A stretch of 64,000 nucleotides of DNA, taken from Candidatus Stahliibacteriota bacterium. GTDB taxonomy: Bacteria > Hydrothermota > Tepidihabitantia > B3-TA06. Positions within the stretch are counted from its first letter, which is position 1; each line of letters begins with the position of its first letter. The notes below the pieces were generated by a model, which searched no databases, was not told the origin of the DNA, and saw only the letters and a list, made by a program, of their open reading frames with translations. Position numbers and translations under genes: made by a program. The stretch spans positions 42,264-106,263 of the forward strand of contig SOJW01000035.1 of the NCBI GenBank assembly GCA_004375895.1, in the 5' to 3' direction. Shown in pieces: positions 1 through 19,635 of this stretch.

Positions 1-24
1 AAAACCGAGCAAGGTGAAGAAGTA

Positions 25-924
25 GTGAACTTCCCTAAACGCCCGACGGCTGAACACTCCCAAACTCCCAGAGCTGGCATTGAATCCAAGATGACGCCTG
101 CTAAGTGTCCCAAAATCAATTACGTTCGTCCCCCTGTGCCGCACATACCTACCCAGACGGCAAGGGTGGTAGTGTCACATGAGTTCGATATCCTGGTGGG
201 ATACGGCTATGCGAACAGGGAAGATTTCTTTGAGGTAAGATTGGGGATATGGCACGAGATAATGGAATTGGCGATACTCGCTTTGACTATGGAAGCGCTT
301 TACTGGCCGCTGGATCTTTATCACTCCTGTTACATTAATGACATACCAAATAGCTTCGCTAATGCCGCTGTTGCTTATGTTCAGCAGTGGTTGTGTGGTA
401 GTGAAGGTAGGAAGAAATTCCTTTACTGGAAGGGCGATCCGCCCTTTGAGGCGTTTGAATCCCAGTCACGCTCGCACGAAAAGGAGGCTGAGCGGCTGGC
501 TTCCAACGCCTCCTCTTTGGATAAGGGAGGGAGCCATCTGCAGGCTAACTCACAATGGAAGGAGTGTGCGGAAGCCTGGGAGAGGGCGGCAAAAGCTTGG
601 GACGCCTCCACACATCCAGATGCCAGGTCTAAAGCCAAAGATGCCCGGGAAGAGATGAGAGTGGCTGCTAAGAAGGCAGGACACTGGGAGGTTAATCCTT
701 CTTCAGGTAAAGAGATAACCATTAAGTACCGGGATTGGTTCGGGGATTTTGAGGCAGAGATCCTGGATACAACCGGGAGGAGGATTGATAAGTTTACCCG
801 TTCAATTGAACAAGGCGAGATTTGCTGGGGTGCTGAGGGCCGCATAAAAGCCGGCACTTATTTCGTTAAGGTGAAGCTTTTAGGTGACGAGTTCGAGACG
901 GAGAAGATAGCTATTCTGGGGTAG
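25..924 (+). CDS. Hypothetical protein, cassette family A (Trp-rich W-x-x-A-x-x-AW repeats); paralog of 1968..3053
   Basis: Long ORF with a GTG start at 25 after an in-frame TAG. Shares the motifs LWHEIME..L.ALxxEALY and FLYW(K/E)GDPPF(E/D)xFE plus repeated WxExAxAW segments with ORF 1968..3053. No signal peptide. No homolog recognised. Confidence 0.5.
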   Translation: MNFPKRPTAEHSQTPRAGIESKMTPAKCPKINYVRPPVPHIPTQTARVVVSHEFDILVGYGYANREDFFEVRLGIWHEIMELAILALTMEALYWPLDLYHSCYINDIPNSFANAAVAYVQQWLCGSEGRKKFLYWKGDPPFEAFESQSRSHEKEAERLASNASSLDKGGSHLQANSQWKECAEAWERAAKAWDASTHPDARSKAKDAREEMRVAAKKAGHWEVNPSSGKEITIKYRDWFGDFEAEILDTTGRRIDKFTRSIEQGEICWGAEGRIKAGTYFVKVKLLGDEFETEKIAILG

Positions 925-983
925 TGATTATTTTTCTTTTGTAGCGCGAGCCTCAGCGTGCCCACTTCGGGTATCGGGTTCGC

Positions 984-1011
984 TTGACAACCCTCCCGCG
1001 CTCCCTACAAT
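984..1011 (+). promoter_or_regulatory. Consensus sigma70 promoter (TTGACA-16-TACAAT) upstream of the family B1 gene
   Basis: TTGACA at 984-989 and TACAAT at 1006-1011, followed by RBS gaagga and ATG at 1029. The same -10/RBS/ATG block is repeated at 6331-6362. Confidence 0.6.
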
Positions 1012-1028
1012 AATTTACAGAAGGAGTG

Positions 1029-1781
1029 ATGAAGAACGTGTTTAAACAGATAACGATCCTGTGCCTTATCGTCCTTGCGGGGTCAGTCATCTTCTGCAAG
1101 AAGAAGGCGGAGGAAGAGCCTGAGCCGCACTGGCTGCGGGTATACCACGACGGTGAGTTCAAGTGGAAGATCGATGTTTCGGAGTGGGAGGTTAGAGAGG
1201 ATGTAGTTCCTCTAGGGGTTTTTTTTTATCCGTGGCAAGGGGAGGATTCCATTAACTGGACTGAGTACGATCCCCACGGACACCCTCTTTGGCCGGGACC
1301 TTACCTGGCAGTAAACGATAAGGTAGTAGGTGTAAATCTGGGATTTATTCCTCTTTCTTACCCAGAGATTGTGGACTCAGAGAAGATAATTACTGCTACG
1401 TTCGATGAGTATTTTGTGGGGTCCGAGTTTGACCCTGCTGTACTTAAGAAGTTACCCAACCTGATCGGCCTATACTGGTGTGTTGGTTCAAGAGAAGACT
1501 TGGAAAGGATTGGAACTATACCCTCACACCTGAGAATCTATCTTTTTTGTTACCATGATATAACTGGAGCCGATCTCAAGGGGTTAAGTAAGTTCTCCAA
1601 TATCCGGTCGTTGCGGATAGAGGACGGTTCGTTGAGTTATCGTGATCTCAGATACCTTTGCAGGTTTAAAGGGCTACGCTGGTTTGAATTTATCACCCGG
1701 GTACATCAGGAGGAACGGATCAAATGTCTGAGTAAGCTCAAAAAGCTGAGATATTGGTACGTGGGACCGATAATTATTTAG
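1029..1781 (+). CDS. Secreted/membrane protein, cassette family B (N-terminal signal/TM segment, FFYPW(Q/H)GEDSI motif, C-terminal leucine-rich repeats)
   Basis: ORF with an N-terminal hydrophobic segment (ITILCLIVLAGSVIFC). Shares motifs with 3967..5016 and 5171..6247. C-terminal LRR-like periodicity (LRSLRIEDGSLSYRDLRYLCRFKGLRW). ATG at 1029 preferred over GTG at 1026. Confidence 0.55.
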   Translation: MKNVFKQITILCLIVLAGSVIFCKKKAEEEPEPHWLRVYHDGEFKWKIDVSEWEVREDVVPLGVFFYPWQGEDSINWTEYDPHGHPLWPGPYLAVNDKVVGVNLGFIPLSYPEIVDSEKIITATFDEYFVGSEFDPAVLKKLPNLIGLYWCVGSREDLERIGTIPSHLRIYLFCYHDITGADLKGLSKFSNIRSLRIEDGSLSYRDLRYLCRFKGLRWFEFITRVHQEERIKCLSKLKKLRYWYVGPIII

Positions 1782-1967
1782 AAACCCCTTCTTTGAGCAA
1801 TAGAAACTTAAAGCACTTCTTCAGGCTTCTATTGACTTCTTCATCTACGTCTTTACGCTAAAAGAGATTATCTTCGGTTAAACTTTCCCAAAGGAGGTTG
1901 AGATGAAGGTCGAGATTAAACACAGGAGCAAGCGAGGGTTTCCCATCACTGAGAAGGAGGTGTTCCT

Positions 1968-3053
1968 ATGTCTAACATAGACCCGGGAAAGACCGTAGCA
2001 TTGGAGGAGCAGCTGCGACTGATCACTGACCCTAACAACGAGAGATTAGGCTCCAAGAAGTTTAAATTCTTCTTCGAGTTCGGCTGGAGACCTAATGAGA
2101 TCGAACTTGCAAAAGAAGCGGAGAAGGAGGAAAAGAGATACCAGTACGTGAATTCCAAAGGATATTTTACCTATGAGGATACAGGTCGTGTAGACAAGTT
2201 TACAGGCTATACGCAGCACATCTATCAGGCCAAGGTGAATCTCACCGTGCCCCAGGCTGCGGCCCTGTTGGGTCATTACGGGATTGATCTCGTGGTGCGC
2301 TCACAGTACACATACAAGGGAAAGGATTTCCCCAGGGAAGCGGAAAAGGGAGAGGAGACACGCGGGGGTGCCATAACTACCTTGCCCGCTTTGCCTGAAC
2401 CCGAGAGCCTGGGGCACATGCAGGGGACAGCGACGATTATGTTCTCCCATCACTTTGACATCCGACCTGAATACCTGCCCGGCAAGGTTGCCCTGAAAGA
2501 GGAGTTCGTGGCGGTGCGAAAGAGGCTCTGGCACGAGATAATGGAGACCACCTTGATCGCCCTGGTCGCCGAAGCGCTTTATATGCCTCGCCAGCTTCAC
2601 AGTGATTATAAACGTAAGAAGTTGGACAATTTTGCCAACGAGAGCGTAAAGGAGGTGCAACGGGGATTGAGGGACAGCCTGTTTCTTTACTGGGAGGGCG
2701 ATCCGCCGTTTGATGGGTTTGAGGTTGGGCCGATGTCCAAGGAAAATGAGCTGGAGCAAAGGGAGAATCACCTTCACGGCCTCAAGTCGTTCTATATCCC
2801 TGAAAAGATAGCGCGAATGTGGGAGGACATAGCCAAGGAATGGGAAGTAGTAGCCCAAGCCTGGCTCTATACCAAATCTCCCCATCGGATTAAGAAGGCT
2901 ACTACGGCCTGGGAGAAAGCTGCTAATGCCTGGTACGCGGCTGAAGGGGAGTGGCGCAGGTCAACCCATGCTGATAAAGATAAGTTGGCTGATGCTTCTC
3001 AAAAGCGAGGCCAGGAAGCGGAACGCAAAGCCAAAGATATGGTGGGAAGGTAG
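1968..3053 (+). CDS. Hypothetical protein, cassette family A (full-length paralog of 25..924)
   Basis: RBS ggagg then ATG at 1968. Shares RLWHEIMETTLIALVAEALY and LFLYWEGDPPFDGFE with ORF 25..924. Trp-rich C-terminal repeats (WEDIAKEWEVVAQAW, AWEKAANAW). Confidence 0.55.
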   Translation: MSNIDPGKTVALEEQLRLITDPNNERLGSKKFKFFFEFGWRPNEIELAKEAEKEEKRYQYVNSKGYFTYEDTGRVDKFTGYTQHIYQAKVNLTVPQAAALLGHYGIDLVVRSQYTYKGKDFPREAEKGEETRGGAITTLPALPEPESLGHMQGTATIMFSHHFDIRPEYLPGKVALKEEFVAVRKRLWHEIMETTLIALVAEALYMPRQLHSDYKRKKLDNFANESVKEVQRGLRDSLFLYWEGDPPFDGFEVGPMSKENELEQRENHLHGLKSFYIPEKIARMWEDIAKEWEVVAQAWLYTKSPHRIKKATTAWEKAANAWYAAEGEWRRSTHADKDKLADASQKRGQEAERKAKDMVGR

Positions 3054-3130
3054 TCTACTTCTCGGCAAGCAACCTGTCCACCAGATCGTCCGGCGATACA
3101 CCCCCTCGGCGGCTTGACAACCCTACTCCC
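3054..3130 (+). repeat. ~75-bp 3'-flank repeat carrying a -35 box (copy 1); copy 2 at 6251..6324
   Basis: Near-identical block ...ctcggcggcttgacaaccctactcc... found directly after the stops of family A2 (3053) and family B3 (6247). Confidence 0.7.
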
Positions 3131-3234
3131 ATTGGCCGGGCAAATGTGCAATCCAGATCTGGACTTGCTCCGCCGGTCAACCGGGAAGACTGGTCAAGAG
3201 CATAAGTGAGCCTCACTCGGCAGGGGTTATCACA

Positions 3235-3909
3235 TTGGGAGTGGAGAGTAAGCTCGCTCCCGGTAGCTATATGCCCAAACCCTGGCTCGAGGCTTACGCA
3301 AGGGAAGAGGACAGAGAGAAAGCCAATGGAGTGGTGCCCCAACCCATGAGGTTCACCATAGGAAAGCCCAAATGGAGCGTTAAGATAGACGAGGTCGCTT
3401 TCAACCCCCAGGTGGTCATAGATTTCAAAAGTTTCTTCAAGGGATTTGAGGCCAAAATCTACTACAAACAAAGGCTTGTGGATACCCTGACCTCCACTAC
3501 CCCATCAGGGCAGTTTACCTGGGGCGATGGCAAAAAGCACGCAGAATATGAAATAAAGGTGAACGTCAACGGGGTATGGCAGAGTAAGAGCATCGGACGG
3601 TTCTCCGTAAAACCTCCCTACTGGAAGGTGTGGTACGAGAATGCCGGAAGCCTAGGTAAAACCATAGATATAGAATACGGGGATTGGCGACCTAAAGAAG
3701 TTGGATGCCCTGTAACCATAACGGATCCCAGAGGCAGGAAGTACCTTTTTAATGATCATAAGGAATATGGTTGGTATAAGTTCGATCTTAGGGATAAGCC
3801 TTTGGGGAGATATAGGCTAGAAGTCGATACCGATTATCCGGAGAGCGCCATTAAAAAAAGCGTAGAGGTGGAGGTAGGCAGCGAGCTTGACAGCAAGAGA
3901 ATACTTTAG
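3235..3909 (+). CDS. Hypothetical protein, predicted beta-rich, unique to the island
   Basis: Long ORF with good coding-like composition. Start uncertain: TTG at 3235, GTG at 3241, or first ATG at 3271. No recognisable domain. Confidence 0.4.
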   Translation: MGVESKLAPGSYMPKPWLEAYAREEDREKANGVVPQPMRFTIGKPKWSVKIDEVAFNPQVVIDFKSFFKGFEAKIYYKQRLVDTLTSTTPSGQFTWGDGKKHAEYEIKVNVNGVWQSKSIGRFSVKPPYWKVWYENAGSLGKTIDIEYGDWRPKEVGCPVTITDPRGRKYLFNDHKEYGWYKFDLRDKPLGRYRLEVDTDYPESAIKKSVEVEVGSELDSKRIL

Positions 3910-3966
3910 GGAGGCAAGTTGACATAGAAGGGGAATCTCCTATACTTTCTTATGTAAGGAGGATTT

Positions 3967-5016
3967 ATGGATTCTAACATCGATTTCAAAACAAAAATAA
4001 TTAACGCTATGTTTTTACTCCTCATCCTGAGTCTTACCTTCTGCAGAAGAGGTCTGGGTGAAGGTTATGAATCATTTCGTCTCCCTCACTTTTATTCTCG
4101 AGATCTCCCTGCAAGAGAGATACTACCACTCCTATGGAAAAATGCCTATCTGCCGGACGCGGTGCCTGAAGATGTGGTTGAAAAGGGCAAAAAACTGATC
4201 GTCACCCACCGGGGAGAACCGTATCTGGTTTATGATGTCTCCGGGTGGGAACCGGGCGAGGATGTGGTGGGATTTTATCTGCCGAAGGATTACACCTCTC
4301 CTATAGATGTGGATTCCTATTTATGCGAACAACTTGGGGTAGATGAGTTGCCCTTCCCCATCGAGGAGGAAGAGGAGAGAGCTCCCTTGTTGTTTTTCTA
4401 TCCCTGGCATGGTGAAGATAGTATTGACTATAAGGTAGACCCGGAACCTTTAACCGTAAACGGCAAGATCGTAGGGGGTGTTCTTTCTTCCATAGAATTC
4501 ATGTATTTTCTTGAGGACGAGGGAATCGACATCGAACAGATCGATTTCCGTACCCAAGGAATACTCTGTCTCACGACACAGGCGTTCGAACCTGAGTATA
4601 CCATTAGAAGACTGAGGCGATTCCCTGATCTGGAGGTAGTATTCATGTATCTGGATCGCATCAGTTATGCGTATAGCGACTGCTTTGTCTGGAATGAGAC
4701 CTTATATTACAAGGAGAAATGCTGGCTTTCCAAGTGGCTCTATTTCAGGAACCTTAAGCGAGTGACCGAGATTGCCAACCTTTATCTTTACCTCGCCGAC
4801 ATTGCCGATGACGAACTTAGGCTCTTAAGTGACTTCACCAAGCTTAAGGGGTTGTGGATAAAAAGCGACAGCCTCACCGACGTCGGGCTTGCGCACCTAA
4901 AAAAACTCTCCGGATTGAGGACGCTTTATCTTTATGGAACAGAGGTAAGCGAGGAGGGGATGGTCGAGTTAGGGGAAGTCTTGCCCAGATGTGATATCAT
5001 GCGGAGGGGTCGTTAG
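3967..5016 (+). CDS. Secreted/membrane protein, cassette family B (paralog B2)
   Basis: RBS aaggagg then ATG. N-terminal hydrophobic segment LLLILSLTFC, motif LLFFYPWHGEDSIDYKV. C-terminal LRR (LKGLWIKSDSLTDVGLAHLKKLSGLRTLYLYGTEVSEEG) about 90% identical to B3. Confidence 0.55.
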   Translation: MDSNIDFKTKIINAMFLLLILSLTFCRRGLGEGYESFRLPHFYSRDLPAREILPLLWKNAYLPDAVPEDVVEKGKKLIVTHRGEPYLVYDVSGWEPGEDVVGFYLPKDYTSPIDVDSYLCEQLGVDELPFPIEEEEERAPLLFFYPWHGEDSIDYKVDPEPLTVNGKIVGGVLSSIEFMYFLEDEGIDIEQIDFRTQGILCLTTQAFEPEYTIRRLRRFPDLEVVFMYLDRISYAYSDCFVWNETLYYKEKCWLSKWLYFRNLKRVTEIANLYLYLADIADDELRLLSDFTKLKGLWIKSDSLTDVGLAHLKKLSGLRTLYLYGTEVSEEGMVELGEVLPRCDIMRRGR

Positions 5017-5026
5017 GACCCTTTAC

Positions 5027-5160
5027 AATAAAAAAGGAAAACAGACTTTCTACCCACGCAGGTGAGAAGTGTGGTAAGGCACATCAGGCCGATACACCAC
5101 TCCCCTAACAGTGCAGATCACCAATAACACCACTTGACGTCTGGGAAAAATATACTTATA
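5027..5160 (+). repeat. Duplicate of the tRNA-Cys upstream/promoter segment (homologous to 6408..6540)
   Basis: Shared block agactttctacccacgcagg...ggtaaggcacatcaggcc...ccactcccc...ttgacg, ending in a -35/-10 that drives the leaderless B3 start at 5171. Confidence 0.6.
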
Positions 5161-5170
5161 CTTCTTGGTT

Positions 5171-6247
5171 ATGAGGCGAAAGAAGAAACTTAAAATTATT
5201 TTCCTGACAATAGGCAGCACCTTGCTTCTTTTAATTTTATCCGTCCTGTTTTCCTACTATTATCTAGTTAGTGATTGGGGTGATAAGAATCGCATTCTGC
5301 CTCCGTTTTATTTTTGGGGTCCATACGCATGGGAGGGGCCATTTGGGCTATTTGTATATGATTATCTTCCGCACCTTTTGAAAGATGCTTATCTCCCGGA
5401 GGAGGTGCCTGAAGATGTGGAAGAAAAATTAGTGGTTCTCCGCGATGGAGAACCGGAAGTAGTTTATGATGTATCCAGGTGGGAACCGGGCGAGCACGTG
5501 ATGCGGTTTTATGCAAGGAGAAGGGAATATGACACCCTGGTGATGACTTCTTTTGATACGGGGGACACGATCCTATATGAGATACGCAAGCTATTCCCCC
5601 AGGAGCAGACTGAATCTGCCACATTGTTTCTTTACCCCTGGCACGGGGAAGATACCATCTCCTATCAGGTTTCGTCTTGGAGTTTGCGGATAAACGGCAA
5701 GCAGGCAGGGGTCCTTTTTCGCCCCATAGAATCAATGTCGTTTCTTCCTGAGGAAAAGATCGAACTTGAATATATCGACGCCCCTACCCAAGGGATAGTC
5801 ACTATTACAATAGAAGATTTTGAACCACCTTTTACAATAAGAAGACTGGAGCGCTTCCCTGACCTGGAGGTAATATTCATGACCCTGTACTTTGAAGATT
5901 ATGCTTACGAGTATTACCGCCGCTTGGCCCCTGAATTGATACGCTACAAAGAGAGGTGCTGGCTTTCCAAGTGGCTCTACTTCAGGGGCCTAAAGCAAGT
6001 GACCGAGATAGCCGATCTTTATCTTTACATCGAGGGAGTGCGCGATGCTGAACTCTGGTTCTTACGTAACTTCACCAAGCTTAAGGGGTTGTGGATCGAA
6101 AGCGACAGCCTCACCGACGCCGGGCTTGCGCACCTAAAAAAACTCTCCGGATTGAGTACGCTTTATCTTTATGGAACAGAGGTAAGCGAGGAGGGGGTAG
6201 CCGAGTTACGGGAAGCCTTGCCGGAGTGTAAGATTACGTTCAGATAA
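5171..6247 (+). CDS. Membrane-anchored protein, cassette family B (paralog B3)
   Basis: ATG at 5171 lies 9 nt after a TTATAC -10 box, so the transcript is leaderless. Has an N-terminal TM helix, LFLYPWHGEDTISYQV, and a C-terminal LRR shared with B2. Confidence 0.55.
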   Translation: MRRKKKLKIIFLTIGSTLLLLILSVLFSYYYLVSDWGDKNRILPPFYFWGPYAWEGPFGLFVYDYLPHLLKDAYLPEEVPEDVEEKLVVLRDGEPEVVYDVSRWEPGEHVMRFYARRREYDTLVMTSFDTGDTILYEIRKLFPQEQTESATLFLYPWHGEDTISYQVSSWSLRINGKQAGVLFRPIESMSFLPEEKIELEYIDAPTQGIVTITIEDFEPPFTIRRLERFPDLEVIFMTLYFEDYAYEYYRRLAPELIRYKERCWLSKWLYFRGLKQVTEIADLYLYIEGVRDAELWFLRNFTKLKGLWIESDSLTDAGLAHLKKLSGLSTLYLYGTEVSEEGVAELREALPECKITFR

Positions 6248-6250
6248 AGG

Positions 6251-6336
6251 ATTTACTTCTCTTCAAGCAGCCTGTCTACAGCTCGTCGGCTGACACGCCC
6301 TCGGCGGCTTGACAACCCTACTCCTATACCTACAAT
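6251..6336 (+). repeat. 3'-flank repeat copy 2 fused to a TTGACA-16-TACAAT promoter
   Basis: Homologous to 3054..3130. TTGACA at 6309-6314 and TACAAT at 6331-6336, followed by RBS+ATG at 6357 of a degenerate family B N-terminus. Confidence 0.65.
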
Positions 6337-6356
6337 AGTTTACAGAAGGAACGGCG

Positions 6357-6410
6357 ATGAAGAGGATCATTAAAGCGGCAGCGATCGTCATGCTTCCTTT
6401 TTGCTCCTTA
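6357..6410 (+). pseudogene. Remnant 5' end of a family B cassette gene (signal-peptide-like MKRIIKAAAIVMLPFCSL) that loses coding character and runs over tRNA-Cys
   Basis: The promoter/RBS/ATG-AAG context is identical to B1 (1006-1034). ORF 6357..6740 overlaps the tRNA and the downstream composition is non-coding. Confidence 0.45.
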
Positions 6411-6510
6411 TCTAAGGAAAAGGAAAGAGACTTTCTACCCACGCAGGCGGGGAAGTCCGGTAAAGCACGTCAGGCCAGTAAGCCACTCCCCCAAGACGGA
6501 GTGATTCGAC

Positions 6511-6539
6511 TTGACAATCCAGTTCTCCTAGATATATTT
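6511..6539 (+). promoter_or_regulatory. tRNA-Cys promoter (TTGACA-17-TATATT)
   Basis: The -35 is at 6511-6516 and the -10 at 6534-6539. The mature tRNA 5' end at 6547 lies about 8 nt downstream. Confidence 0.6.
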
Positions 6540-6546
6540 AGCTTAA

Positions 6547-6618
6547 GGCGGCATAGCCAAGTGGTAAGGCGGCGGTCTGCAAAACCGCTATTCCTCGGTT
6601 CAAGTCCGGGTGCCGCCT
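6547..6618 (+). tRNA. tRNA-Cys (anticodon GCA)
   Basis: Hand-folded cloverleaf. Acceptor GGCGGCA/TGCCGCC, anticodon stem GCGGT/ACCGC, loop CTGCAAA giving anticodon GCA. T-loop TTCAAGT, 72 nt, CCA not encoded. Confidence 0.85.
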
Positions 6619-6623
6619 TAAAG

Positions 6624-6655
6624 CCCCACCCTCGCAGCTTGCTGCGAGGGTGGGG
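6624..6655 (+). terminator. Stem-loop directly after tRNA-Cys (CCCCACCCTCGCAGC-TTGC-TGCGAGGGTGGGG)
   Basis: Perfect 14-bp stem seen in the sequence. It lacks a U-tract, so it could be a processing or termination structure. Confidence 0.5.
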
Positions 6656-7032
6656 ACCCCGATCGGGATGGTCAACACATCGTTACCAGGTAAAGGGGTT
6701 GAGATCGTCAAGTAGGAGGACAGGGAAGTTGATGAAGTAGAACAGACACTCTTGTCTGTTCAAAAACCAAAAATCTCCCTACTTCCCACCAATACCGAAA
6801 TCTTTTCGTATTCCCAGAACCAATTTTCATTACTATACTTTACTAGAGCTGTGAAATCTGTCAAGTCTTCCAACTATATACCCTCTTCTGTTGACGATAC
6901 TACACTGAACTAATAAATCACCTTGATTAAACGATAATGGCGCTCTTACCTCTCCCCTCTGGTAACCATCTCCCCGCGCACGCACTTAATACGCTTGACG
7001 CAGGCCGCATTATCCACTATAATCAGTGCTTG

Positions 7033-7299
7033 ATGTCTGTTGTTGCTGTCTATCGTCCTATGGACGAACTAACTGCCCGTGCGTTACTTGCAGCACTGGA
7101 GGTCAAGGGTATACGCGCGGAGCTGCGGCAGTTTCACAACCCCTGGGAGATTCCCTGGCTTGAAGGGAACCCATGGGGCGAGATACTGGTACTGGAAGAG
7201 TACGCCGGACGGGCCCGAAAGGTAATTGAGGATTTTCTCGCGAACGCAGACGGGGATACAGCCTCTCCGAATGAAGACGAAACGGCATCCGACGAGTAA
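7033..7299 (+). CDS. DUF2007-like small protein (putative signal-transducing protein family)
   Basis: MSVVAVYRPMDELTARALLAALEVKGIRAEL matches the DUF2007 pattern. A TTGACG-17-TATAAT promoter (6995-7023) places the transcription start ~3 nt before the ATG, so the transcript is leaderless. Confidence 0.5.
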   Translation: MSVVAVYRPMDELTARALLAALEVKGIRAELRQFHNPWEIPWLEGNPWGEILVLEEYAGRARKVIEDFLANADGDTASPNEDETASDE

Positions 7300-7375
7300 T
7301 GGGAATCCCGAACAGGGCGTAAAGGCGAAGCCCAAAAAATCAAAGTGTCACTGAAGGAGACAATCAGGAGGCTTT

Positions 7376-10135
<2,760 letters not shown>

Positions 10136-10238
10136 AAGCAAGATAGGCCTCAACCAGCCCGAGGACGCCCCCCCCAAAGTAGTGAAATCCGCATTAGGCA
10201 ACCCTAAGGCACTCCTGCAACCTCCGCAATCCATGATC

Positions 10239-10266
10239 TTGACTGCCAGATCATTCTAAGTATGAT
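10239..10266 (+). promoter_or_regulatory. TTGACT-16-TATGAT promoter; leaderless start of the gene at 10272
   Basis: The ATG begins 6 nt after the -10 box. Confidence 0.5.
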
Positions 10267-10271
10267 GAGGT

Positions 10272-11054
10272 ATGAGGCTTCGCAAAGGAGTAATACTGGC
10301 CGGTGGCATGGGCGCAAGGCTGGCTCCCCTGACTCAGGTGACGAATAAGCATCTCCTTCCTGTCTACGATAGACCGATGGTAACCTATCCGATCGAGAAG
10401 ATGGTCCAGGCCGGTATCGAGGAGATACTTTTAGTCACCGGCGGTGAGTTCGCAGGCGATTTCCTGAGACTACTGGGCAACGGGAAATCGTTAGGGATAA
10501 AAAGACTCCACTACACCTATCAGGAGGGGCACGGAGGGATAGCGGCAGCGCTTTCGCTGGCCGAGGACTTCGCGGACAGCGAGCCGATTCTCGTAATCCT
10601 GGGCGACAACATCTTCAACGCTTCGATTTTACCTTTCGTGAAGAAGTACAACTCCCAAGGTACCGGTGCCATGATCCTCTTAAAAGAGGTCGCCGACGCG
10701 CACCGCTTCGGCGCGGCTACTGTGGAAGGTGATAGGATAGTAAAAATCACGGAGAAGCCAGCCAAGCCCGAGTCGAATCTGGCCGTGACCGGCATCTACT
10801 TCTACGACTCACGTGTGTTTGAGATAATCAAGGGCCTTTCGCCGTCGGCCCGCAACGAGCTTGAAATCACCGACGTGAACAACATCTACATCTCGTGTGA
10901 CCAGATGCGCTGGGAAAAGCTTACCGGCTGGTGGAGTGACGCAGGGACGTTTGAATCTCTTTACCGGGCAACGGAGTTGGTGCGTAAATCCCGGCTTTCT
11001 GCGAAAGGAGAGAAGGGGAGGAGGACGGAAGGAGAACGGGAGGAGGGCGCGTGA
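10272..11054 (+). CDS. Sugar-phosphate nucleotidyltransferase (short RmlA/glucose-1-phosphate thymidylyltransferase-like)
   Basis: GVILAGGMGARLAPLT...KHLLPV at the N-terminus and the LGDNIF motif. Has a low-complexity Glu/Arg-rich C-terminal tail. Confidence 0.8.
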   Translation: MRLRKGVILAGGMGARLAPLTQVTNKHLLPVYDRPMVTYPIEKMVQAGIEEILLVTGGEFAGDFLRLLGNGKSLGIKRLHYTYQEGHGGIAAALSLAEDFADSEPILVILGDNIFNASILPFVKKYNSQGTGAMILLKEVADAHRFGAATVEGDRIVKITEKPAKPESNLAVTGIYFYDSRVFEIIKGLSPSARNELEITDVNNIYISCDQMRWEKLTGWWSDAGTFESLYRATELVRKSRLSAKGEKGRRTEGEREEGA

Positions 11055-13531
11055 CGCTGGTTCTTATAGACGGGCACTCCATCGCCTACCGGTCATACTT
11101 TGCTTACATCAAGAAACCACTCCGAGATTCGTCTGGCCGTAACACCTCCGCAATCTTCGGTTTCCTTCAGGCCATGGATAAGATTGCCGAGCATTATCCG
11201 ACAGATCACATGGTCATAACCTTCGACGCAGGCAGGCGAGTGTTCCGCCACGATAAGTTCGAAGATTATAAGAAAGACAGACCCCAGATGCCGGACGATC
11301 TGGTATGGCAGGTGCCCATGATCACGAGGGTAGCAAAACTGCAGGGTCTGCCGGTGCTCCTCAAGGAAGGCTACGAGGCTGACGACATCATGGCCACCAT
11401 TACAGATAAGCTTGCCAAGAACTTCTCCAAGGTGGTAATCGTTTCAGGCGACAAGGATCTCTATCAGCTGGTGTGCGGCAAGGTGGTGATCTATGACCCT
11501 TACAAGGACGAGGAGTTTGACCCTGAAAAGGTGAAGGGAAAGATGGGCGTTGGGCCTGAACGCATCACCGATCTTTTGGCCCTTATGGGCGATTCAGTAG
11601 ACGGGGTGCCAGGTGTTCCGGGCATCGGCCCCAAGCGGGCAAAGGACTTGCTGGAAAAGTATGGTGATCTGGCAACCGCACTCCAAAAGGAAGAAAAGCT
11701 TGCCGAGCATCGGGAGGTTGCAGAGCTCTCCTACGAGCTTGTTCAGCTGCATCGCGACGTGCCGATTGAAGTTGACGAGGACTCACTCAAGCGCACCGAA
11801 CCGAACGACGCTGGACTTCAGGATATGTATAACGAGCTTGGGTTTACGTCAAGGTTGTCCAGGATGAAGGTAAGGGATAAGACAGCAAAGCTGGAGATCA
11901 CCAAGGGTGAATTTAAACCCAAAAAGGGCGACCCCATATCCTTTATATTCGAGGAGAACTCCGGACAGCGCGATATGTTCGATGAAAGTGAGGAGGAGTG
12001 TTACGGGTGGACGAGAATCCTGGCCTCAGACGGGTTCACGGTGGCGGAGATCACCGAAGATCAAGCGCGTAAACTATTTTCTGAGGAGTGCTACCCCAAG
12101 ATACTGTGGGCGGCAAAGCCCCTGCTGCGCGCCGGGTTCCAGATCAAGGGCAAGCTTTACGACATCCACCTCATGGCGTTTATCGAAAACTCAGATTTGA
12201 GCTTAAGGACCCTGGAACGTGTCTTGGTGCACACTGCAGGCAGACCCATCTCCTCCCCTGCTGACACTGCGAACCTGATGCACGAAGCCGCAGAGCATTA
12301 TCAAAAGGAACTTGAGAACGTGGGGGCATGGGATGTGTACGAGAAGATGGAGGTCCCGCTCATCCCGGTACTTACTAAAATGGAGCAGCGCGGGGTGAGG
12401 CTGGATACCTCATACTTCGGAAAATTAACCGATGGCTGGGAAGGCGAGTTGAAGAAGTTAGAGGAAGAAATCCATGCGATAGCAGAGCAAAAGTTCACCA
12501 TAGGCTCGCCCAAGCAGCTTGCAGAGGTGCTTTTTACCGAGCTTGGCCTTCGTCCCCGCAAACGGACCAAGACCGGCTACTCCACCGCCGCAGGTGTTCT
12601 TGAAGAGATGGCTGACGAGCATCCCATCATACCCAAGGTACTCCAGTGGCGCGCCTTCTCCAAGCTCTTATCGACCTATCTCAGACCTCTGGTTACCCTG
12701 GTGGATAAGGATTCAAGGATACATACGACCTTCGACCAGACCGGTGCGGCCACCGGCAGGTTATCGACCAAGGACCCCAACCTTCAGAACATCCCTATCA
12801 GGGGTGAGCGCGGCCCACAGGTACGTGCAGGGTTTATCGCAAGCCCGGGCTACAAACTCTTATCAGCCGACTACTCACAGATCGAGCTCCGGGTGCTCGC
12901 CCACGTTGCAGAAGATGAAGCGTTGGCCAAGGTATTCCACGACGGTCGGGACGTGCATACCGAGACCTCGATGCGTATCTTCGGGTTGAAGGAAGCTGAC
13001 GTCACCCGCGACCACCGGCGCATGGCCAAGGCGATCAATTACGGGATAATCTACGGCATGGGTCCCTATGGTTTCGCGCGCCGCATGGGTGTGACCACCG
13101 AAGAGGCCTCGCTCTTCATCGAACGCTACCTCGCTTCATTCCCCCAGGTGTCGGCTTGGCGGGAGCAGATTCTTGTGGACGCAAGGGAAAACGGATACGT
13201 ATCCACGATAGCAGGAAGAGTCCGCCGACTCCCGGTTATCTCAGACCGTATGGACATAGCCGAGCGCGCAGCTCTCAACGCACCTATACAGGGGTCTGCT
13301 GCGGATATAATAAAAAAGGCGATGATTACGGTGGAGAAGAATCTCGAAAAGGCGGGGATAGAGCCGGGCATGCTTCTTCAGATCCACGACGAGTTGTTGT
13401 TCGAGGTGAAAGAAAGCGAGGTGGAAAAGGCGAAGAAGATCGTCAAGAAGGACATGGAGTCGGCCTACAAGCTCTCGGTACCGCTTGAGGTGGAGATAGG
13501 GGTAGGTGATAACTGGGCGCAGGCGCATTAG
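11051..13531 (+). CDS. polA: DNA polymerase I (5'-3' exonuclease plus polymerase domains, Taq-like length)
   Basis: 826 aa. N-terminal 5'-nuclease LIDGHSIAYRSYFA. Polymerase motifs RRMAKAINYGIIYGM and QIHDELLFE. GTG start overlaps the upstream stop. Confidence 0.95.
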   Translation: MTLVLIDGHSIAYRSYFAYIKKPLRDSSGRNTSAIFGFLQAMDKIAEHYPTDHMVITFDAGRRVFRHDKFEDYKKDRPQMPDDLVWQVPMITRVAKLQGLPVLLKEGYEADDIMATITDKLAKNFSKVVIVSGDKDLYQLVCGKVVIYDPYKDEEFDPEKVKGKMGVGPERITDLLALMGDSVDGVPGVPGIGPKRAKDLLEKYGDLATALQKEEKLAEHREVAELSYELVQLHRDVPIEVDEDSLKRTEPNDAGLQDMYNELGFTSRLSRMKVRDKTAKLEITKGEFKPKKGDPISFIFEENSGQRDMFDESEEECYGWTRILASDGFTVAEITEDQARKLFSEECYPKILWAAKPLLRAGFQIKGKLYDIHLMAFIENSDLSLRTLERVLVHTAGRPISSPADTANLMHEAAEHYQKELENVGAWDVYEKMEVPLIPVLTKMEQRGVRLDTSYFGKLTDGWEGELKKLEEEIHAIAEQKFTIGSPKQLAEVLFTELGLRPRKRTKTGYSTAAGVLEEMADEHPIIPKVLQWRAFSKLLSTYLRPLVTLVDKDSRIHTTFDQTGAATGRLSTKDPNLQNIPIRGERGPQVRAGFIASPGYKLLSADYSQIELRVLAHVAEDEALAKVFHDGRDVHTETSMRIFGLKEADVTRDHRRMAKAINYGIIYGMGPYGFARRMGVTTEEASLFIERYLASFPQVSAWREQILVDARENGYVSTIAGRVRRLPVISDRMDIAERAALNAPIQGSAADIIKKAMITVEKNLEKAGIEPGMLLQIHDELLFEVKESEVEKAKKIVKKDMESAYKLSVPLEVEIGVGDNWAQAH

Positions 13532-13584
13532 GGGGAGAATTGAACCACAGATTACACCGATTTCACGGATTAAGGTTTGATTAT

Positions 13585-13633
13585 GGAGTGCAACGAGCGC
13601 CTCGTTGCCGCAACAACACGGTTGTTGCACTCC
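13585..13633 (+). repeat. Structured repeat family 'GGAGTG-2 hairpins-CACTCC', copy 1
   Basis: GGAGTG-[CAACGAG cgc CTCGTTG]-ccg-[CAACAAC acg GTTGTTG]-CACTCC. Other copies at 31400, 33157 and 41192. Confidence 0.7.
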
Positions 13634-13659
13634 AAAGTCACGAGGGTAGAAAAAAATGA

Positions 13660-13750
13660 AACACGGAGATCACAGAGAACACGGAGAAAACCATATGAAT
13701 AATTATAATAATCCCCTCCTCTGTGTTCTCCGTGTGCTCTGTGGTTTTAA
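13660..13750 (+). repeat. Long imperfect inverted repeat (~25-bp arms, ~35-nt AT-rich loop) downstream of polA
   Basis: cacggagatcacagagaacacggag ... ctcctctgtgttctccgtgtgctctgtgg. Confidence 0.5.
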
Positions 13751-13756
13751 TACCCT

Positions 13757-14167
13757 ATGACCTGGACACCGCCTAAGACACCCTATCTCACGGTTGACTG
13801 CATCATCAGATACAAGCAAGGGATTGTGCTGATCCAGCGTAGGCATCCGCCCGAAGGCTGGGCCCTGCCCGGAGGATTCTGCGAGATCGGCGAGACGGTC
13901 GAGGACGCGGTGCGCCGGGAGGTGCGCGAGGAGACCGGGCTGGAGCTTGAGAACTTAAAGCAGTTCCGCGTCTACTCCGACCCAGCCCGCGACCCCCGCT
14001 TCCACACCGCCTCAGTGGTCTTTGCCGCCGACGGCATTGGTGTGTTACGGGGCGGAAGCGACGCAAAGGTTGCGAGAGTGTTTAAGTTGGATGAGCTGCC
14101 GGAAGAGATTTGTTTTGACCATCGAGAGATTATACAAGACTACATTGTCAATCTTTCATCTACGTGA
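13757..14167 (+). CDS. NUDIX hydrolase
   Basis: Nudix box GGFCEIGETVEDAVRREVREETGL. Confidence 0.8.
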   Translation: MTWTPPKTPYLTVDCIIRYKQGIVLIQRRHPPEGWALPGGFCEIGETVEDAVRREVREETGLELENLKQFRVYSDPARDPRFHTASVVFAADGIGVLRGGSDAKVARVFKLDELPEEICFDHREIIQDYIVNLSST

Positions 14168-14647
14168 GTCCTCCCTACCATAAGTTTTCGGGCTGACCTA
14201 AAGGTCAGCCCCTACAGGGGATTGCGCTACCCCTCCCCCTTCATCCCCCTCCACAAAGGGAGGGGGAAAACTCCCAGTAACGACACTGACACCTTTTACC
14301 CCTCCATCTCGATGGGGGAGGTTGGGAGGAGGTGAAGCCTCTTTCCACTCCACCTACCCCCTACCCTATGGGGCGCAGTAAAATTGGCGCCCCAAGGGGC
14401 ACGCTGTCCACCAAGGAGGGGGAATAATACACTCCTTCAGAGCCCTCCTTCAATAAGGGGACAATGTAGCGCAGGCTCAGCGTGCCCCTGTCGGGTGCTC
14501 CAGCCTGCGCTGATATATTATTAAACAGGCTAGAGAGCCTGTTCTACATTTTACATTCGCTGTAAGCGAAAAGGAGCATTAGAATCAGTTGACAGACCCC
14601 ATCTTATCCGTATCCTCATAAGCAAAAACAAACCATAAGGAGGAGAA

Positions 14648-14971
14648 TTGGCCATAACCATGGACGACTTCAAAAAGATTGACCTGCGTGTAGCTAAGAT
14701 TACCGAGGCCGAGAGGATTGAAGGAACCGATAAGCTCTTAAAGCTCAAGGTAACGCTCGGGGTCGAGGAGCGCCAGCTTGTGGCAGGAATAGCCCAGCAT
14801 TACTCTCCTGAAGAATTGGTGGGCAAGCAGCTTATCGTGGTTACGAACCTTGAGCCAGCGTTGATAAAAGGCGTGGAGTCTCAGGGTATGCTTCTGGCAA
14901 CGGTAAGCCAGGGCAGGGTGATCCTGGCAACCATGGACGCCGAAACAGAGCCCGGCTCCAAGATACTTTAG
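14648..14971 (+). CDS. tRNA-binding protein (CsaA/Trbp111, EMAP-II-like OB fold)
   Basis: DLRVAKITEAERIEGTDKLLKLKVTLG...LVGKQLIVVTNLEPALIKGVESQGMLLA. Confidence 0.8.
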   Translation: MAITMDDFKKIDLRVAKITEAERIEGTDKLLKLKVTLGVEERQLVAGIAQHYSPEELVGKQLIVVTNLEPALIKGVESQGMLLATVSQGRVILATMDAETEPGSKIL

Positions 14972-14972
14972 G

Positions 14973-15842
14973 ATGTTCGACACCCATACCCACCTTTGTC
15001 ATAAATCCTTCCGTAAGGATCGTGAGGAGGCGTTTGATAGGGCACTGGAAGCGGGCGTGAATCTCATGCTTGAGATTAGCTGGGACGTTCGCTCAAGCGA
15101 GGCAGCCATCCGGTTTGCCGAGGATCACGAAGGCGTGTGGGTGGCGGTAGGTTATCATCCACACGAGTCTCGTAACACCCGTACCCCTTCGGGGCATTCT
15201 CATAATTATTCGGAGCTTACGCTCCGCTCACAAGGAAATAACACCCGCCCCCCTTCGGGGGATTCTCATAATCAGCTTGAATCACAAGGAAATAACACAC
15301 CCAATTATCTGCAAAGGCTTGAAGAGTTAAGTAAACATCAAAAGGTCAAGGCGATAGGCGAGATCGGTCTTGACTACTACAGGGATCTATCGCCGCGGGA
15401 TGTACAGAAGCGGGTGTTTGCAGAGCAGATCGAGCTTGCCGATGAACTCAAGCTACCCATGGTGATCCACTGTCGTGACGCGATGGATGATGTTCTGCCG
15501 ATCGTTGCCGAGCAAGGTTACTACCGGGGCGTTTTTCACTCGATTTCTGCAGACTCGGAGCAGGCACAGAAGATTGTGGGGCTGGGATTCTATCTTGGCA
15601 TCAACGGGACGCTGACCTATGATAGCAAGAGGACCAAAAGCTGGTTGCCTCGGGTTCCGAAAGAGCGGTTGCTTATCGAGACCGACTGCCCCTACCTTGC
15701 GCCTGTCCCCTATCGTCGCGAGCGCAACGAACCCGCGTACGTAAGATACGTGGCCGAGGCGGTAGCCGGTGTCCTAGAGACATCGGTTGAAGAGATCGGA
15801 GATCTAACCGAGAAGAACGGGAAGGAGCTCTTCCTTGGCTAG
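14973..15842 (+). CDS. tatD: TatD-family metal-dependent hydrolase carrying a ~120-bp in-frame repeat-element insertion
   Basis: MFDTHTHLCH and GEIGLDYY motifs. A foreign 40-aa segment RNTRTPSGHSHNYSELTLRSQGNNTRPPSGDSHNQLESQGNNT sits at 15171-15305 and is encoded by the GTTACGG/hairpin element. Confidence 0.85.
   Translation: MFDTHTHLCHKSFRKDREEAFDRALEAGVNLMLEISWDVRSSEAAIRFAEDHEGVWVAVGYHPHESRNTRTPSGHSHNYSELTLRSQGNNTRPPSGDSHNQLESQGNNTPNYLQRLEELSKHQKVKAIGEIGLDYYRDLSPRDVQKRVFAEQIELADELKLPMVIHCRDAMDDVLPIVAEQGYYRGVFHSISADSEQAQKIVGLGFYLGINGTLTYDSKRTKSWLPRVPKERLLIETDCPYLAPVPYRRERNEPAYVRYVAEAVAGVLETSVEEIGDLTEKNGKELFLG
15171..15305 (+). repeat. GTTACGG/hairpin element inserted in frame in tatD, as two tandem units of 66 and 54 bp
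   Basis: Unit: AACACCCG..CCCCTTCGGGG(UUCG-type hairpin)CATTCTCATAAT..CGGAGCTTACGCTCCG..CACAAGGAAAT. About 95% identical to the reverse complement of 63851-63935. Confidence 0.8.
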
Positions 15843-16674
15843 AACCCGGATTGTTCACGTTCATCCGAAAAAGAGACTGGGACAGCACTTTCTGCGCAGA
15901 AAAGAGATAGCGCAGAGGATAGTGGACGCGCTTGAGGTGACCGAGAAAGACACGGTGGTAGAGGTCGGCGCTGGGACAGGCGAACTTACCCGGTTGATTA
16001 TAAAGCAAGCAGGTAAGGTGGTTGCGGTTGAGGTTGACGAGACCTGTTTCCCGACACTCCAGGTTCTTGCCGATCTCAATCACAATCTTGAGTTGTTTTT
16101 AGACGATGTGAGGAAATTGGATCTGTCTCATTATGCGTGTGTTACGGGTGTTACGGGTGGGTGTGTTACGGGTGTTACGGGTAAGGGTGTTACGGGTGTC
16201 CTCGGCAATCTCCCCTATCACCTCTCGGCAGAGATACTGTTCTGGCTGCTGGGACAGAGAAAGTATTGGCAGAGAGCGGTTCTTACGGTGCAGGCGGAGT
16301 TCGCGGCTCGCCTGGCAGCTGAGGTTGGCTCTCACGACTACTCGGCACTCTCGGTTATCGCCCAGACCTTTATCACTACCGAAAAGCTTTTCGACATCCC
16401 TGCCGAAGCCTTCGTACCGCCCCCCAAGGTGAAATCAACTACTATAAGAATACAGCCTATCGATAAAGTTGAGATCCCCCTATCTGAGGAGGACTTCATC
16501 AAGTTTGTCCGCTCGTGCTTTGCCCATCGCCGCAAGAGGCTTGCCAACAACCTCAAGATGATGGGTATACCCACTCCAGACAAGCTTTTAGAAGAACTGG
16601 GGCACTCGCCAACCGTCCGCCCCCAGGAACTCTCATCCCATGACTACATTCGGTTTATTAACGCTGCTCGTTAG
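15835..16674 (+). CDS. rsmA: 16S rRNA (adenine1518/1519-N6)-dimethyltransferase RsmA/KsgA with an in-frame 9-bp tandem-repeat insertion
   Basis: LGQHFLRRKEIAQRIVDAL, VVEVGAGTGELT, and GNLPY carrying an inserted CVTGVTGGCVTGVTGKGVTGV segment. Confidence 0.85.
   Translation: MARTRIVHVHPKKRLGQHFLRRKEIAQRIVDALEVTEKDTVVEVGAGTGELTRLIIKQAGKVVAVEVDETCFPTLQVLADLNHNLELFLDDVRKLDLSHYACVTGVTGGCVTGVTGKGVTGVLGNLPYHLSAEILFWLLGQRKYWQRAVLTVQAEFAARLAAEVGSHDYSALSVIAQTFITTEKLFDIPAEAFVPPPKVKSTTIRIQPIDKVEIPLSEEDFIKFVRSCFAHRRKRLANNLKMMGIPTPDKLLEELGHSPTVRPQELSSHDYIRFINAAR
16135..16200 (+). repeat. (GTGTTACGG)n, ~6 tandem 9-bp repeats in frame within rsmA
   Basis: gtgttacgggtgttacgggtgggtgtgttacgggtgttacgggtaagggtgttacggg. 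Confidence 0.85.
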
Positions 16675-18992: not shown

Positions 18993-19013
18993 GTCGGCAG
19001 GTAGTTGTAGAAG

Positions 19014-19391: not shown

Positions 19392-19635
19392 CGCTTCCTC
19401 CTTTAGAACATTTAATTATTACACAAAATCAGGCCTGTGTCAAGGGGTGAGTTTTATGCTCCTTTCGTCGGAGGACGACGCTTGCGACCCGACAGGGTAA
19501 AGATCGCAGAGCAAAAAATGCAGGGGCCACTCATGCCTCGTCCATACTGATTCCGGATCCCCGCTTGTGCCCCGGTCGGGTGTCAGGTTCGCTTGACTCA
19601 GGCGAGTCTAAAGACTCGCGCTACATGTAGAGGTG

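Follow-up and report, generated by a model that had tools for sequence, protein, structure and literature searches.

Type VI effectors that act in the periplasm are, as a rule, leaderless proteins encoded together with a periplasmic or lipoprotein immunity protein. In the Tse-Tsi, Tae-Tai and Tle-Tli pairs, a signal-less protein lies beside a partner with a signal peptide or lipoprotein signal, the partner often has orphan copies and can occur alone, and the effector is never found without it. Tandem families of leucine-rich repeat (LRR) lipoproteins in spirochaetes and Bacteroidota (Leptospira LRR proteins, Treponema LrrA and BspA-like proteins) combine a lipoprotein signal with LRRs, expand in tandem in a lineage-specific manner and vary in repeat number. 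Among polymorphic toxin systems, immunity proteins of the LRR class (Imm-LRR) are documented, as is a toxin family with a lipoprotein partner (MafA), and in the maf loci of Neisseria, which are lineage-restricted, recombining and accompanied by orphan fragments, the lipoprotein gene lies upstream of the toxin-family gene (PMC3482391). In this study, we analyzed a 64,000-nucleotide (nt) stretch from a Candidatus Stahliibacteriota bacterium (contig SOJW01000035.1, positions 42,264–106,263; hereafter the window), one end of which carries an array resembling each of these systems in part. The array consists of two gene families: family B, predicted LRR lipoproteins, and family A, multidomain proteins without signal peptides. 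We tentatively read it as an envelope recognition or conflict module of the effector-plus-binder type, in which A would depend on B.

For comparison, 37 related loci were fetched (11 seeded with family A and 26 metagenome loci seeded with family B; designated by L numbers), and hidden Markov models (HMMs) built for the A core and for the N-terminal domain (N-domain) of B were run on all of them. Window positions 1–6619 form the tRNA-proximal end (about 6.6 kb) of a chromosomal gene array of at least 14 kb and at least 12 genes, all on a single strand. Comparison with L003, a locus from assembly GCA_030588455.1, revealed that window positions 1–13053 are 100% identical to L003 positions 8034–21086, and L003 supplies the 8 kb upstream that are missing from the window. 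Across L003 and the window, the gene order is B (348 amino acids [aa], with LRRs), A (618 aa), B (253 aa), a 45-aa A fragment, B (620 aa, about 20 LRRs), B (461 aa), B (261 aa), A1 (427 aa), B1, A2, C, B2 and B3. The array ends downstream at tRNA-Cys (6546–6619), which is followed by a DUF2007 gene and the genes for pyruvate phosphate dikinase (PPDK), a nucleotidyl transferase and PolA, and the remainder of the window beyond the array holds housekeeping genes. A composition check of positions 1–6340, suggested by the initial annotation of this DNA, gave a GC content of 0.485 versus 0.528 +/- 0.016 and a tetranucleotide distance rank of 1/58, making the island the most deviant 6.3-kb stretch of the window. 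All six open reading frames (ORFs) listed in that annotation were found at their coordinates, but A1 is cut by the window edge: the true gene encodes 427 aa (L003 7674–8957) and starts 359 nt before window position 1, so that the GTG at position 25 is not its start. A2 is identical to the hypothetical protein E3J71_04450 of a Candidatus Stahlbacteria metagenome-assembled genome (MAG). The features of this part of the array, in window coordinates, are as follows.

1–924, + strand: A1, the 3' 307 codons of the 427-aa A gene, with the WHEIME core, FLYWKGDPPF, Trp-rich helices and one C-terminal beta-sandwich (A-core HMM, E 3e-55)
982–1036, + strand: promoter and 5' module of B1, with the -35 TTGACA at 984, the -10 TACAAT ending at 1011, a GGAG ribosome-binding site (RBS) and the ATG at 1029
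1029–1781, + strand: B1, 250-aa predicted lipoprotein (...AGSVIFC-KKK) whose LRR tail, after the FFYPWQGEDSI N-domain, is short and degenerate (B N-domain HMM, E 3e-33)
1968–3053, + strand: A2, 361-aa A protein without signal peptide, beta-sandwich tail or own promoter (A-core HMM, E 2e-54)
3054–3132, + strand: truncated copy of the intergenic module, with its upstream half and the -35 TTGACA at 3114 (94% over 35 nt, 82% over 80 columns); scar of recombination and left boundary of a 3.1-kb segment absent from L005
3122–3909, + strand: C, 3' remnant of an A-type gene with two beta-sandwich modules; ORF 3235–3909, relatives called from the ATG at 3271
3919–3946, + strand: promoter-like site of B2, TTGACA-16-TATACT, 11/12
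3967–5016, + strand: B2, 349 aa, with a signal/lipobox-like N-terminus (...LSLTFC-RRG), an extended N-domain with FFYPWHGEDSI and a short LRR tail with an LPRCDI cap (HMM, E 2e-29)
5033–5108, + strand: copy of the block that usually precedes tRNA-Cys, 81% identical to 6418–6494; the same block precedes tRNA-Cys in L002 and L005
5134–5162, + strand: promoter-like site of B3, TTGACG-17-TATACT, 10/12
5165–6247, + strand: B3, 360-aa paralogue of B2 starting from the ATG at 5171; its N-terminal membrane anchor has no lipobox Cys (B N-domain HMM, E 3e-28)
6251–6400, + strand: complete intergenic module (upstream block, promoter 6309–6336, RBS, ATG at 6357) and a B-type signal-peptide stub (MKRIIKAAAIVMLPFC...), a pseudogene remnant
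6418–6494, + strand: leader block ahead of tRNA-Cys, second copy of 5033–5108
6546–6619, + strand: tRNA-Cys (GCA), Rfam tRNA 65.8 bits, with its own promoter-like site at 6511–6538; conserved 3' boundary of the array

Analysis of the distribution of the two families revealed that A depends on the presence of B, while B does not depend on A. A was never found without an adjacent B where flanking sequence exists, B can be alone, and B genes outnumber A genes by about 2:1. The A and B genes are interleaved on one strand in the 11/11 A-seeded loci, save one contig that ends at an A gene. A lies beside B in 14 of the 26 B-seeded metagenome loci, the rest consisting of short contigs, clusters of B genes without A (L016, L018) and single, divergent B genes (L031–L033). 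An exhaustive profile search of 1.84 billion representative proteins returned 63 matches to family A, about 25 with the core and the others with the beta-sandwich only, and A is encoded in three of 185,579 species genomes (one Stahlbacteria and two WOR-3). The 'TA06' MAG of L002 belongs to the same narrow clade, as indicated by its PPDK, which is 97% identical to that of the window. Taken over genomes and metagenomes, about 16 distinct A/B arrays occupy two chromosomal sites and are confined to a narrow WOR-3/Stahlbacteria clade, and a distant A subfamily (P0043) likewise lies among LRR genes, indicating that the adjacency of A and B, for which the initial annotation had allowed chance, is not fortuitous.

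The first chromosomal site lies between a trio of extracytoplasmic function (ECF) sigma factor, anti-sigma factor and lipoprotein genes and tRNA-Cys/PPDK. The second, represented by L006–L011 and L024–L026 (e.g., L010 7136–17728), lies beside opposite-strand genes for a MoxR-type AAA ATPase, RpiB, tRNA-Met and a tyrosine integrase, the integrase being two genes (MoxR and RpiB) away from the array. The ECF sigma factor, the zf-HC2 anti-sigma factor and the 280-aa lipoprotein form a conserved 5' boundary of the array in five loci (among them L001 396–2521; L016 and L018 6559–8592; L029 5–1662). At L001 12385–19300 (also L028 19701 onward) there is a large CRISPR array in which the repeat CTTTCAATTCCACTATGGTGCGATGGGAG recurs every 65–68 nt, in 111 exact copies. 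In L001, a related metagenome contig, it lies directly downstream of the last B gene and replaces the tRNA-Cys/PPDK end; this repeat is not present in the window.

The paralogy within each family, as initially proposed, was borne out by blastp, with A1 and A2 sharing 39% identity over 169 aa (E 4e-28), B2 and B3 53.5% over 297 aa (E 4e-96), B1 and B2 29% over 216 aa (E 3e-9), and B1 matching B3 with E 6e-5. The proposed motifs LWHEIME, FLYWxGDPPF and FFYPWHGEDSI were found and are the most conserved columns of the respective families. The description of A as Trp-rich holds in that Trp is moderately raised (2.0–3.6%), but this applies to both families and not to A alone. Likewise, the statement that B2 and B3 are nearly identical in the LRR region is too strong, with the tails at 70–76% protein identity and 87% DNA identity over 278 nt; the rest of both proteins is at 26–62%.

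Each B protein was originally described as a signal or transmembrane N-terminus, an FFYPWHGEDSI core and a C-terminal LRR module, and this architecture is supported by the lipobox pattern, the motif conservation and the LRR profiles. A Cys following the N-terminal hydrophobic stretch is invariant in 15/15 aligned B N-domains and is usually followed by KK. The signal peptide is found throughout the family, with the exception of B3, which has a membrane anchor and no lipobox Cys; B1 (VIFC-KKK) and B2 (LTFC-RRG) carry the lipobox Cys with unusual residues at position -1. By this pattern of signal peptide and lipobox Cys, the B proteins are predicted bacterial lipoproteins. WOR-3 cells have inner and outer membranes (PMC12285271), and B is therefore predicted to be periplasmic or surface-anchored. 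The N-domain is family-specific, with the signature WLRVY..G.F...I.V.GWE..EDVV and an invariant Y-P-W-x-G-E/K-D/T-S. It gave no Pfam or NCBIfam match, the PADLOC and PHROGs scans of the island proteins returned nothing above threshold, and a profile search of the N-domain alignment against Protein Data Bank (PDB) sequences gave a single match with E 0.94. The tail forms an LRR solenoid of 2 to about 20 repeats. Membership of the LRR class at Pfam cut-offs was found through array paralogues (L003 3475–5337, LRR_4 105 bits and LRR_8 78 bits; L001 5201–6235, LRR_4 61 bits), to whose repeats the tails of B2 and B3 align with E ~1e-10. Taken alone, the three window copies are sub-threshold (LRR_4 E 0.067), because only 2–4 degenerate repeats and the LPxCxI cap are kept. 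The AlphaFold2 (AF2) model of B2 agrees in part: the beta-alpha repeat tail (residues 260–349) is modelled confidently, but nothing else is, and the overall predicted local distance difference test (pLDDT) score is poor at 51.6. Unlike the LRR lipoproteins of spirochaetes and Bacteroidota, B has a unique N-domain with the YPWxGEDS motif, and its repeats are 24-residue RNI/FBXL-like units with the LPxCxI cap.

None of the A proteins has a signal peptide or hydrophobic N-terminus, though each ORF opens at the first possible start codon after a stop. The A structure was read from the AF2 model of P0018, a full-length A1-like protein that is 94% identical to A1 over the window's residues (pLDDT 78.7, predicted template modelling [pTM] score 0.70). 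The model consists of an N-terminal helix (residues 18–38), an alpha/beta domain (43–178), a long helix bearing W203-H204-E205-x-x-E208, further helices to residue 257 with W262-x-G264-D265 in the following loop, a TPR-like three-helix bundle (270–344) of Trp-rich repeats, and a beta-sandwich (347–424). The N-terminal alpha/beta region is variable, and A1 and P0018 diverge before the FPKRP segment, from which point they are 94% identical over the window's 299 residues to the C-terminus. In 24 core sequences of both subfamilies, R199, the WHExxE motif and the WxGD motif (R-x3-W-H-E-x-x-E ... W-x-G-D) are invariant, and the core domain is modelled confidently (pLDDT 79–98), suggesting that these residues constitute a possible active or binding site. 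The core, including its distant relatives, had no match above threshold in Pfam, NCBIfam, PADLOC or PHROGs, the A alignment gave 0 matches in a profile search of PDB sequences, and fold searches with the whole model returned only the two peripheral domains and none for the core. A reading of WHEIME as a zincin metallopeptidase motif was not supported: all 24 cores read W-H-E-x-x-E and not HExxH, and no peptidase profile or PDB sequence matched. The anti-phage models of PADLOC assigned none of the array proteins to a system, the sole match being HEC-02B at E 0.028 for A2. The initial view that no recognisable domain is present thus holds for the A core and the B N-domain, but not for B as an LRR lipoprotein or for the A tail with its TPR-like bundle and beta-sandwich; homology of A or B to housekeeping families, which would have told against an accessory system, was not found in the profile, PADLOC and PDB searches.

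Secreted, signal-peptide-bearing proteins of the same lineage carry, at their extreme C-terminus, a domain homologous to the beta-sandwich of A; one of them is the product of window ORF 20428–21777, whose C-terminal domain matches the C-terminal 78 aa of A1 (blastp). A Foldseek structure search matched the beta-sandwich of A to immunoglobulin (Ig)-like domains and to domains resembling the type IX C-terminal domain (CTD), including that of PorZ. It is present in 0–4 copies per A protein, and some copies are internal. The module is thus like the type IX CTD (Por_Secre_tail, TIGR04183) and FlgD-Ig-like domains in its homology to the terminal domain of secreted proteins, in these structural matches and in its sub-threshold Por_Secre_tail matches (8/15 A-family members, best E 0.013). 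It is unlike them in that A1 scores under the curated cut-offs of PF18962/TIGR04183 (14.5 bits versus 27, and 13.2 versus 23), that the module is also internal and repeated, and that the Sec signal peptide of type IX cargo, present in the CTD-bearing proteins of this lineage, is missing from every A protein. The beta-sandwich is absent altogether from A2 and its orthologues, yet these proteins are conserved, with a dN/dS (ratio of nonsynonymous to synonymous substitution rates) of 0.18. In the secreted protein at 20428–21777 (+ strand), a signal peptide is accompanied by beta-propeller-like repeats ('SDGGYI') and, at the C-terminus, by a sorting-type domain that reaches 21.1 bits for Por_Secre_tail, just short of the cut-off of 23. 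This terminal domain is homologous to the beta-sandwiches of both A1 and C, and the region is low in GC (0.482).

The best sigma-70-like site was scored within 120 nt upstream of each distinct A or B gene in all loci, with a cut-off of at least 11/12. Such a promoter was found upstream of 30 of the 70 B genes, none of the 27 A genes and 10 of 500 random windows. The typical site is TTGACA-16-TACAAT, and the proposed TTGACA/TACAAT start modules at 984 and 6309 were recovered with scores of 11/12. A genes start a median of 95 nt after the preceding gene, and overlaps of 1–4 nt occur between some A/B and A/A neighbours. As strong promoters precede B genes and never A genes, the transcription unit is promoter-B(-B)-A. 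This replaces the alternating two-gene A+B cassettes of the initial annotation, and the gene order is not strictly alternating. In the window, an operon from upstream has A1 as its last gene and is followed by P(984)-B1-A2, a unit that probably extends over C, and then by P(3919)-B2, P(5134)-B3 and P(6309)-stub. Lacking its own promoter, A2 is probably transcribed together with B1. The promoters ahead of the B genes resemble the sigma-70 type.

The repeated non-coding blocks, formerly called near-identical, do exist, but their identity is only 77–82%: positions 984–1036 match 6309–6361 in 41/53 positions (77%), 3054–3132 match 6251–6327 in 66/80 (82%), and a further pair beyond those listed earlier, 5033–5108 and 6418–6494, is 81% identical. 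The two pairs listed earlier are parts of a single intergenic module about 110 nt long, comprising an upstream block, promoter, RBS and start codon, which stands ahead of many B genes. Comparison between loci revealed closer copies. L003 2393–2489 is 96% identical to window 6264–6363, the module at 6251–6400 is 96–98% identical to its copies at L003 2393–2489 and L005 1235–1355, and the B1 module with its signal-peptide codons is 92% identical over 173 nt to that of the 253-aa B gene at L003 2436–2607. L005 runs from A2 through the block to tRNA-Cys, while the window has an extra 3.1 kb (3133–6253, carrying C, B2 and B3) between two copies of the block, which is a signature of homologous recombination between modules and shows that the blocks mark real indel boundaries. 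The copy of the pre-tRNA leader after B2 (5033–5108) implies that B3 was added at the tRNA-proximal end, leaving the footprint of an earlier array/tRNA junction. Gene debris includes the 45-aa A fragment upstream of the window (L003 3295–3432); in L005, A2 is frameshifted and one B gene is split. The signal-peptide stub at 6357 matches the N-terminus of the B gene at L005 1328–1876. The promoter module and the shared signal-peptide codons act as a substrate of homologous recombination, by which genes are duplicated, deleted and reshuffled and debris (C, the 45-aa fragment and the stub) is left behind. The initial description of a duplication- and recombination-driven, diversifying accessory locus is accordingly well supported by the paralogy, the block-bounded indels and the variation between arrays.

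Several other interpretations of these elements were rejected. The 127-aa ORF at 6357–6740 is not a gene but a B-type signal-peptide stub that reads on through tRNA-Cys. The apparent A-B fusion ORFs at L002 3794–6667 (957 aa) and L022 2381–4867 (828 aa) were discarded as Rosetta-stone evidence. In both, the A gene lost its stop codon at a recombination junction and is read in frame through the 5' untranslated region into the next B gene; as that B gene retains an internal Met, signal peptide and lipobox of its own, the fusions are not genuine. An RNA element in the repeated blocks was also dismissed, as Rfam gave only the tRNA and the folding z-scores ranged from -0.33 to +0.31 relative to shuffled sequence. 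As for an integron-like or recombinase cassette array, the window has no integrase, its intergenic blocks fold no better than shuffled sequence, and one weak inverted repeat is all that it contains.

Gene C, previously set apart from A and B, is the detached Ig-like tail of an A-type gene and not a third family. It corresponds to residues 403–626 of the 626-aa A protein of L001 with 92% identity, and window 3122–4287 is 93% identical to L001 9157–10321 within that A gene. The left junction of C is the truncated intergenic block at 3054–3132, which breaks off right after the -35 hexamer, and the same truncated arrangement is found in L002 and L004. The dN/dS of C is 0.23–0.31, indicating that C is still a constrained coding sequence and not decaying debris. 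Between orthologues (Nei-Gojobori method), dN/dS is 0.29–0.62 for B and 0.18–0.42 for A, compared with 0.05–0.18 for four housekeeping genes (those for PPDK, PolA, MoxR and the nucleotidyl transferase). The array genes are thus all functional and under purifying selection, but they evolve two to four times faster than the housekeeping genes, with B the fastest.

The combination of a signal-less A with an envelope B, the asymmetry between them, the excess of B, the gene debris and the faster evolution are as expected for an effector and an envelope-resident binder, either an immunity protein or a dock, that serve in recognition or conflict between cells. Under our preferred reading, which we regard as possible rather than probable, the LRR lipoprotein B, in the periplasm or on the cell surface, would bind A and neutralise or dock it. 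A would reach the compartment of B by a non-Sec route or come from a neighbouring cell, its invariant His/Glu/Glu/Asp core would be the active part, and specificity would arise from the variable N-domain of A and the variable LRRs of B, so that the array would act as a strain-variable cell-envelope recognition or conflict module. The deviant composition, the block-bounded indels, the dN/dS values and the CRISPR array abutting the locus in L001 support the diversification that this entails. In a more specific version, which seems unlikely to us, the array would encode a new class of envelope conflict system. A would be an effector whose catalytic fold has not been seen before, and an unrecognised route (perhaps via the CTD-like beta-sandwich without a Sec signal) would export this signal-less protein or pass it from cell to cell. 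Diversifying LRR lipoproteins would check or dock it, forming a bacterial self/non-self repertoire based on LRRs.

Several results weigh against the effector-plus-binder reading. The neighbouring A and B genes are reshuffled between genomes and are not conserved as cognate pairs: the 578-aa A protein is 92% identical between L001 and L008, while the B upstream in L008 is only 51% identical to its counterpart (measured on the 89%-identical copy in L002), and the A2 proteins of the window and L005 share 89% identity, against 37% for the B proteins encoded upstream of them. With regard to the linkage expected of polymorphic-toxin immunity genes, B is always adjacent to A and fragments exist (C and the 45-aa A), but the neighbours change. 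In the profile scans, neither A and B nor the genes around them were recognised as members of a secretion-system, toxin or immunity family; as the A core gave no fold match, the case for an enzymatic role of A consists of its invariant polar residues. Every omega (dN/dS) was below 1, and gene-wide positive selection was not found. The polymorphic effector suggested at first does not fit in the strict sense, because polymorphic toxins have a conserved N-terminal trafficking region and a hypervariable C-terminal toxin, varying the active domain, whereas A shows the reverse, with a variable N-terminus, a conserved core and a C-terminus formed by a harmless-looking, non-toxic Ig-like module. The locus also differs from maf loci, in which MafB has a signal peptide, while A has none and a third (immunity) gene family is absent. 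It differs from the type VI pairs, since A and B are not cognate, B is a large LRR protein and not a small single-domain inhibitor, and A has Ig-like modules and no recognised toxin domain; Hcp, VgrG, PAAR and other type VI genes were absent from the window and from the called genes of the 37 loci.

Three other explanations were weighed against this effector-plus-binder reading. The array could be a variable surface-lipoprotein repertoire, in which B proteins are LRR adhesins or receptors (for particles, partner cells or polymers) recombined to change binding or to evade phages or predators, and A is an accessory scaffold, maturation or regulatory protein. The strong promoters on B, its numerical excess, its occurrence without A, its range of 2 to about 20 LRRs and its highest dN/dS all agree with such a repertoire, as does the ECF sigma/anti-sigma/lipoprotein trio at the 5' boundary of five loci, which suits envelope biology. 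The 5' cassettes of promoter and signal peptide common to B paralogues (92% over 173 nt) point the same way, and such shared cassettes are likewise found in variable lipoprotein families of other bacteria. We consider it possible but doubtful: it leaves unexplained why A, a signal-less protein with extracellular-type beta-sandwiches and a His/Glu/Asp core that does not vary, is a constant part of the array and has expanded into divergent paralogues, and the window contains no phase-variation switch (neither an invertible promoter nor a simple-sequence tract). If A is instead the exported component, as a surface or fibre protein with an N-terminal head and an Ig-like stalk, it would carry a signal-peptide-independent C-terminal signal (type I-like or a lineage-specific CTD-like use), and the B proteins would be its outer-membrane docking partners. 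The homology of the terminal beta-sandwich to the C-terminal domain of secreted proteins of the same lineage, its structural matches to Ig and CTD domains including PorZ, its stalk-like repetition (0–4 copies) and the precedent of the docking proposed for MafA and MafB (PMC3482391) speak for this arrangement. It is nevertheless quite unlikely, given that Por_Secre_tail stays below threshold (14.5 versus 27 bits), that type IX cargo requires the Sec signal that A lacks, that A2 and its orthologues are conserved without any beta-sandwich, and that the called genes of the fetched loci include no transporter genes near any array.

The distribution data contradict a mobile island integrated at tRNA-Cys, or of phage origin, whose cargo genes would have no joint function, and we judge this explanation highly improbable. 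The array does adjoin a tRNA gene, its GC is low and its tetranucleotides are deviant, and a tyrosine integrase and tRNA-Met lie near the second site. That integrase is separated from the array by MoxR and RpiB and is on the other strand. Neither an integrase nor a transposase is encoded in the window, and the 3' end of the tRNA is not directly repeated there. Moreover, all related genomes use the same two chromosomal sites, with content shifting by internal recombination; the three species genomes with A are of one clade, and all genes are under purifying selection. A phage origin was rejected, as no relatives of A or B were found among 2.9 million viral contigs.

Tandem LRR lipoprotein families, orphan-rich effector/immunity loci and recombination of promoter cassettes are known kinds. 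The combination of the three is new, as are the A core and B N-domain without a curated family match and the secreted-type terminal domain on signal-less proteins. We know of no counterpart to an obligatory co-array of LRR lipoproteins with the A family. If A and B do form an effector/binder pair, the array would bring a protein fold that is new and has a probable active site, show LRRs diversifying for recognition in a bacterium, and pose a puzzle of secretion, because an extracellular-type domain sits on a signal-less protein. Whatever its function, the locus cleanly illustrates how, in nature, an array evolves by means of an intergenic module that carries a promoter, and it is a strain-level marker for these sediment bacteria. 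The WOR-3/Stahlbacteria phylum has one cultured member and nearly no functional genetics, and these small genomes devote about 14 kb to two families that are missing from all curated databases.

Outside the array, long ORFs without a Pfam match (595, 203, 519, 677 and 433 aa) were observed at window positions 16640–18992, 44745–46304 and 57877–61324 (+ strand), representing further uncharacterised genes. The stretches at 44–46 kb and 60–62 kb of the window are also low in GC (0.483–0.488). On the - strand, a tRNA-Gln (CTG) gene at 22225–22297 is followed at 22985–24565 by a gene for a 526-aa protein that consists almost wholly of HEAT/PBS-lyase repeats (HEAT_2, E 6e-94).

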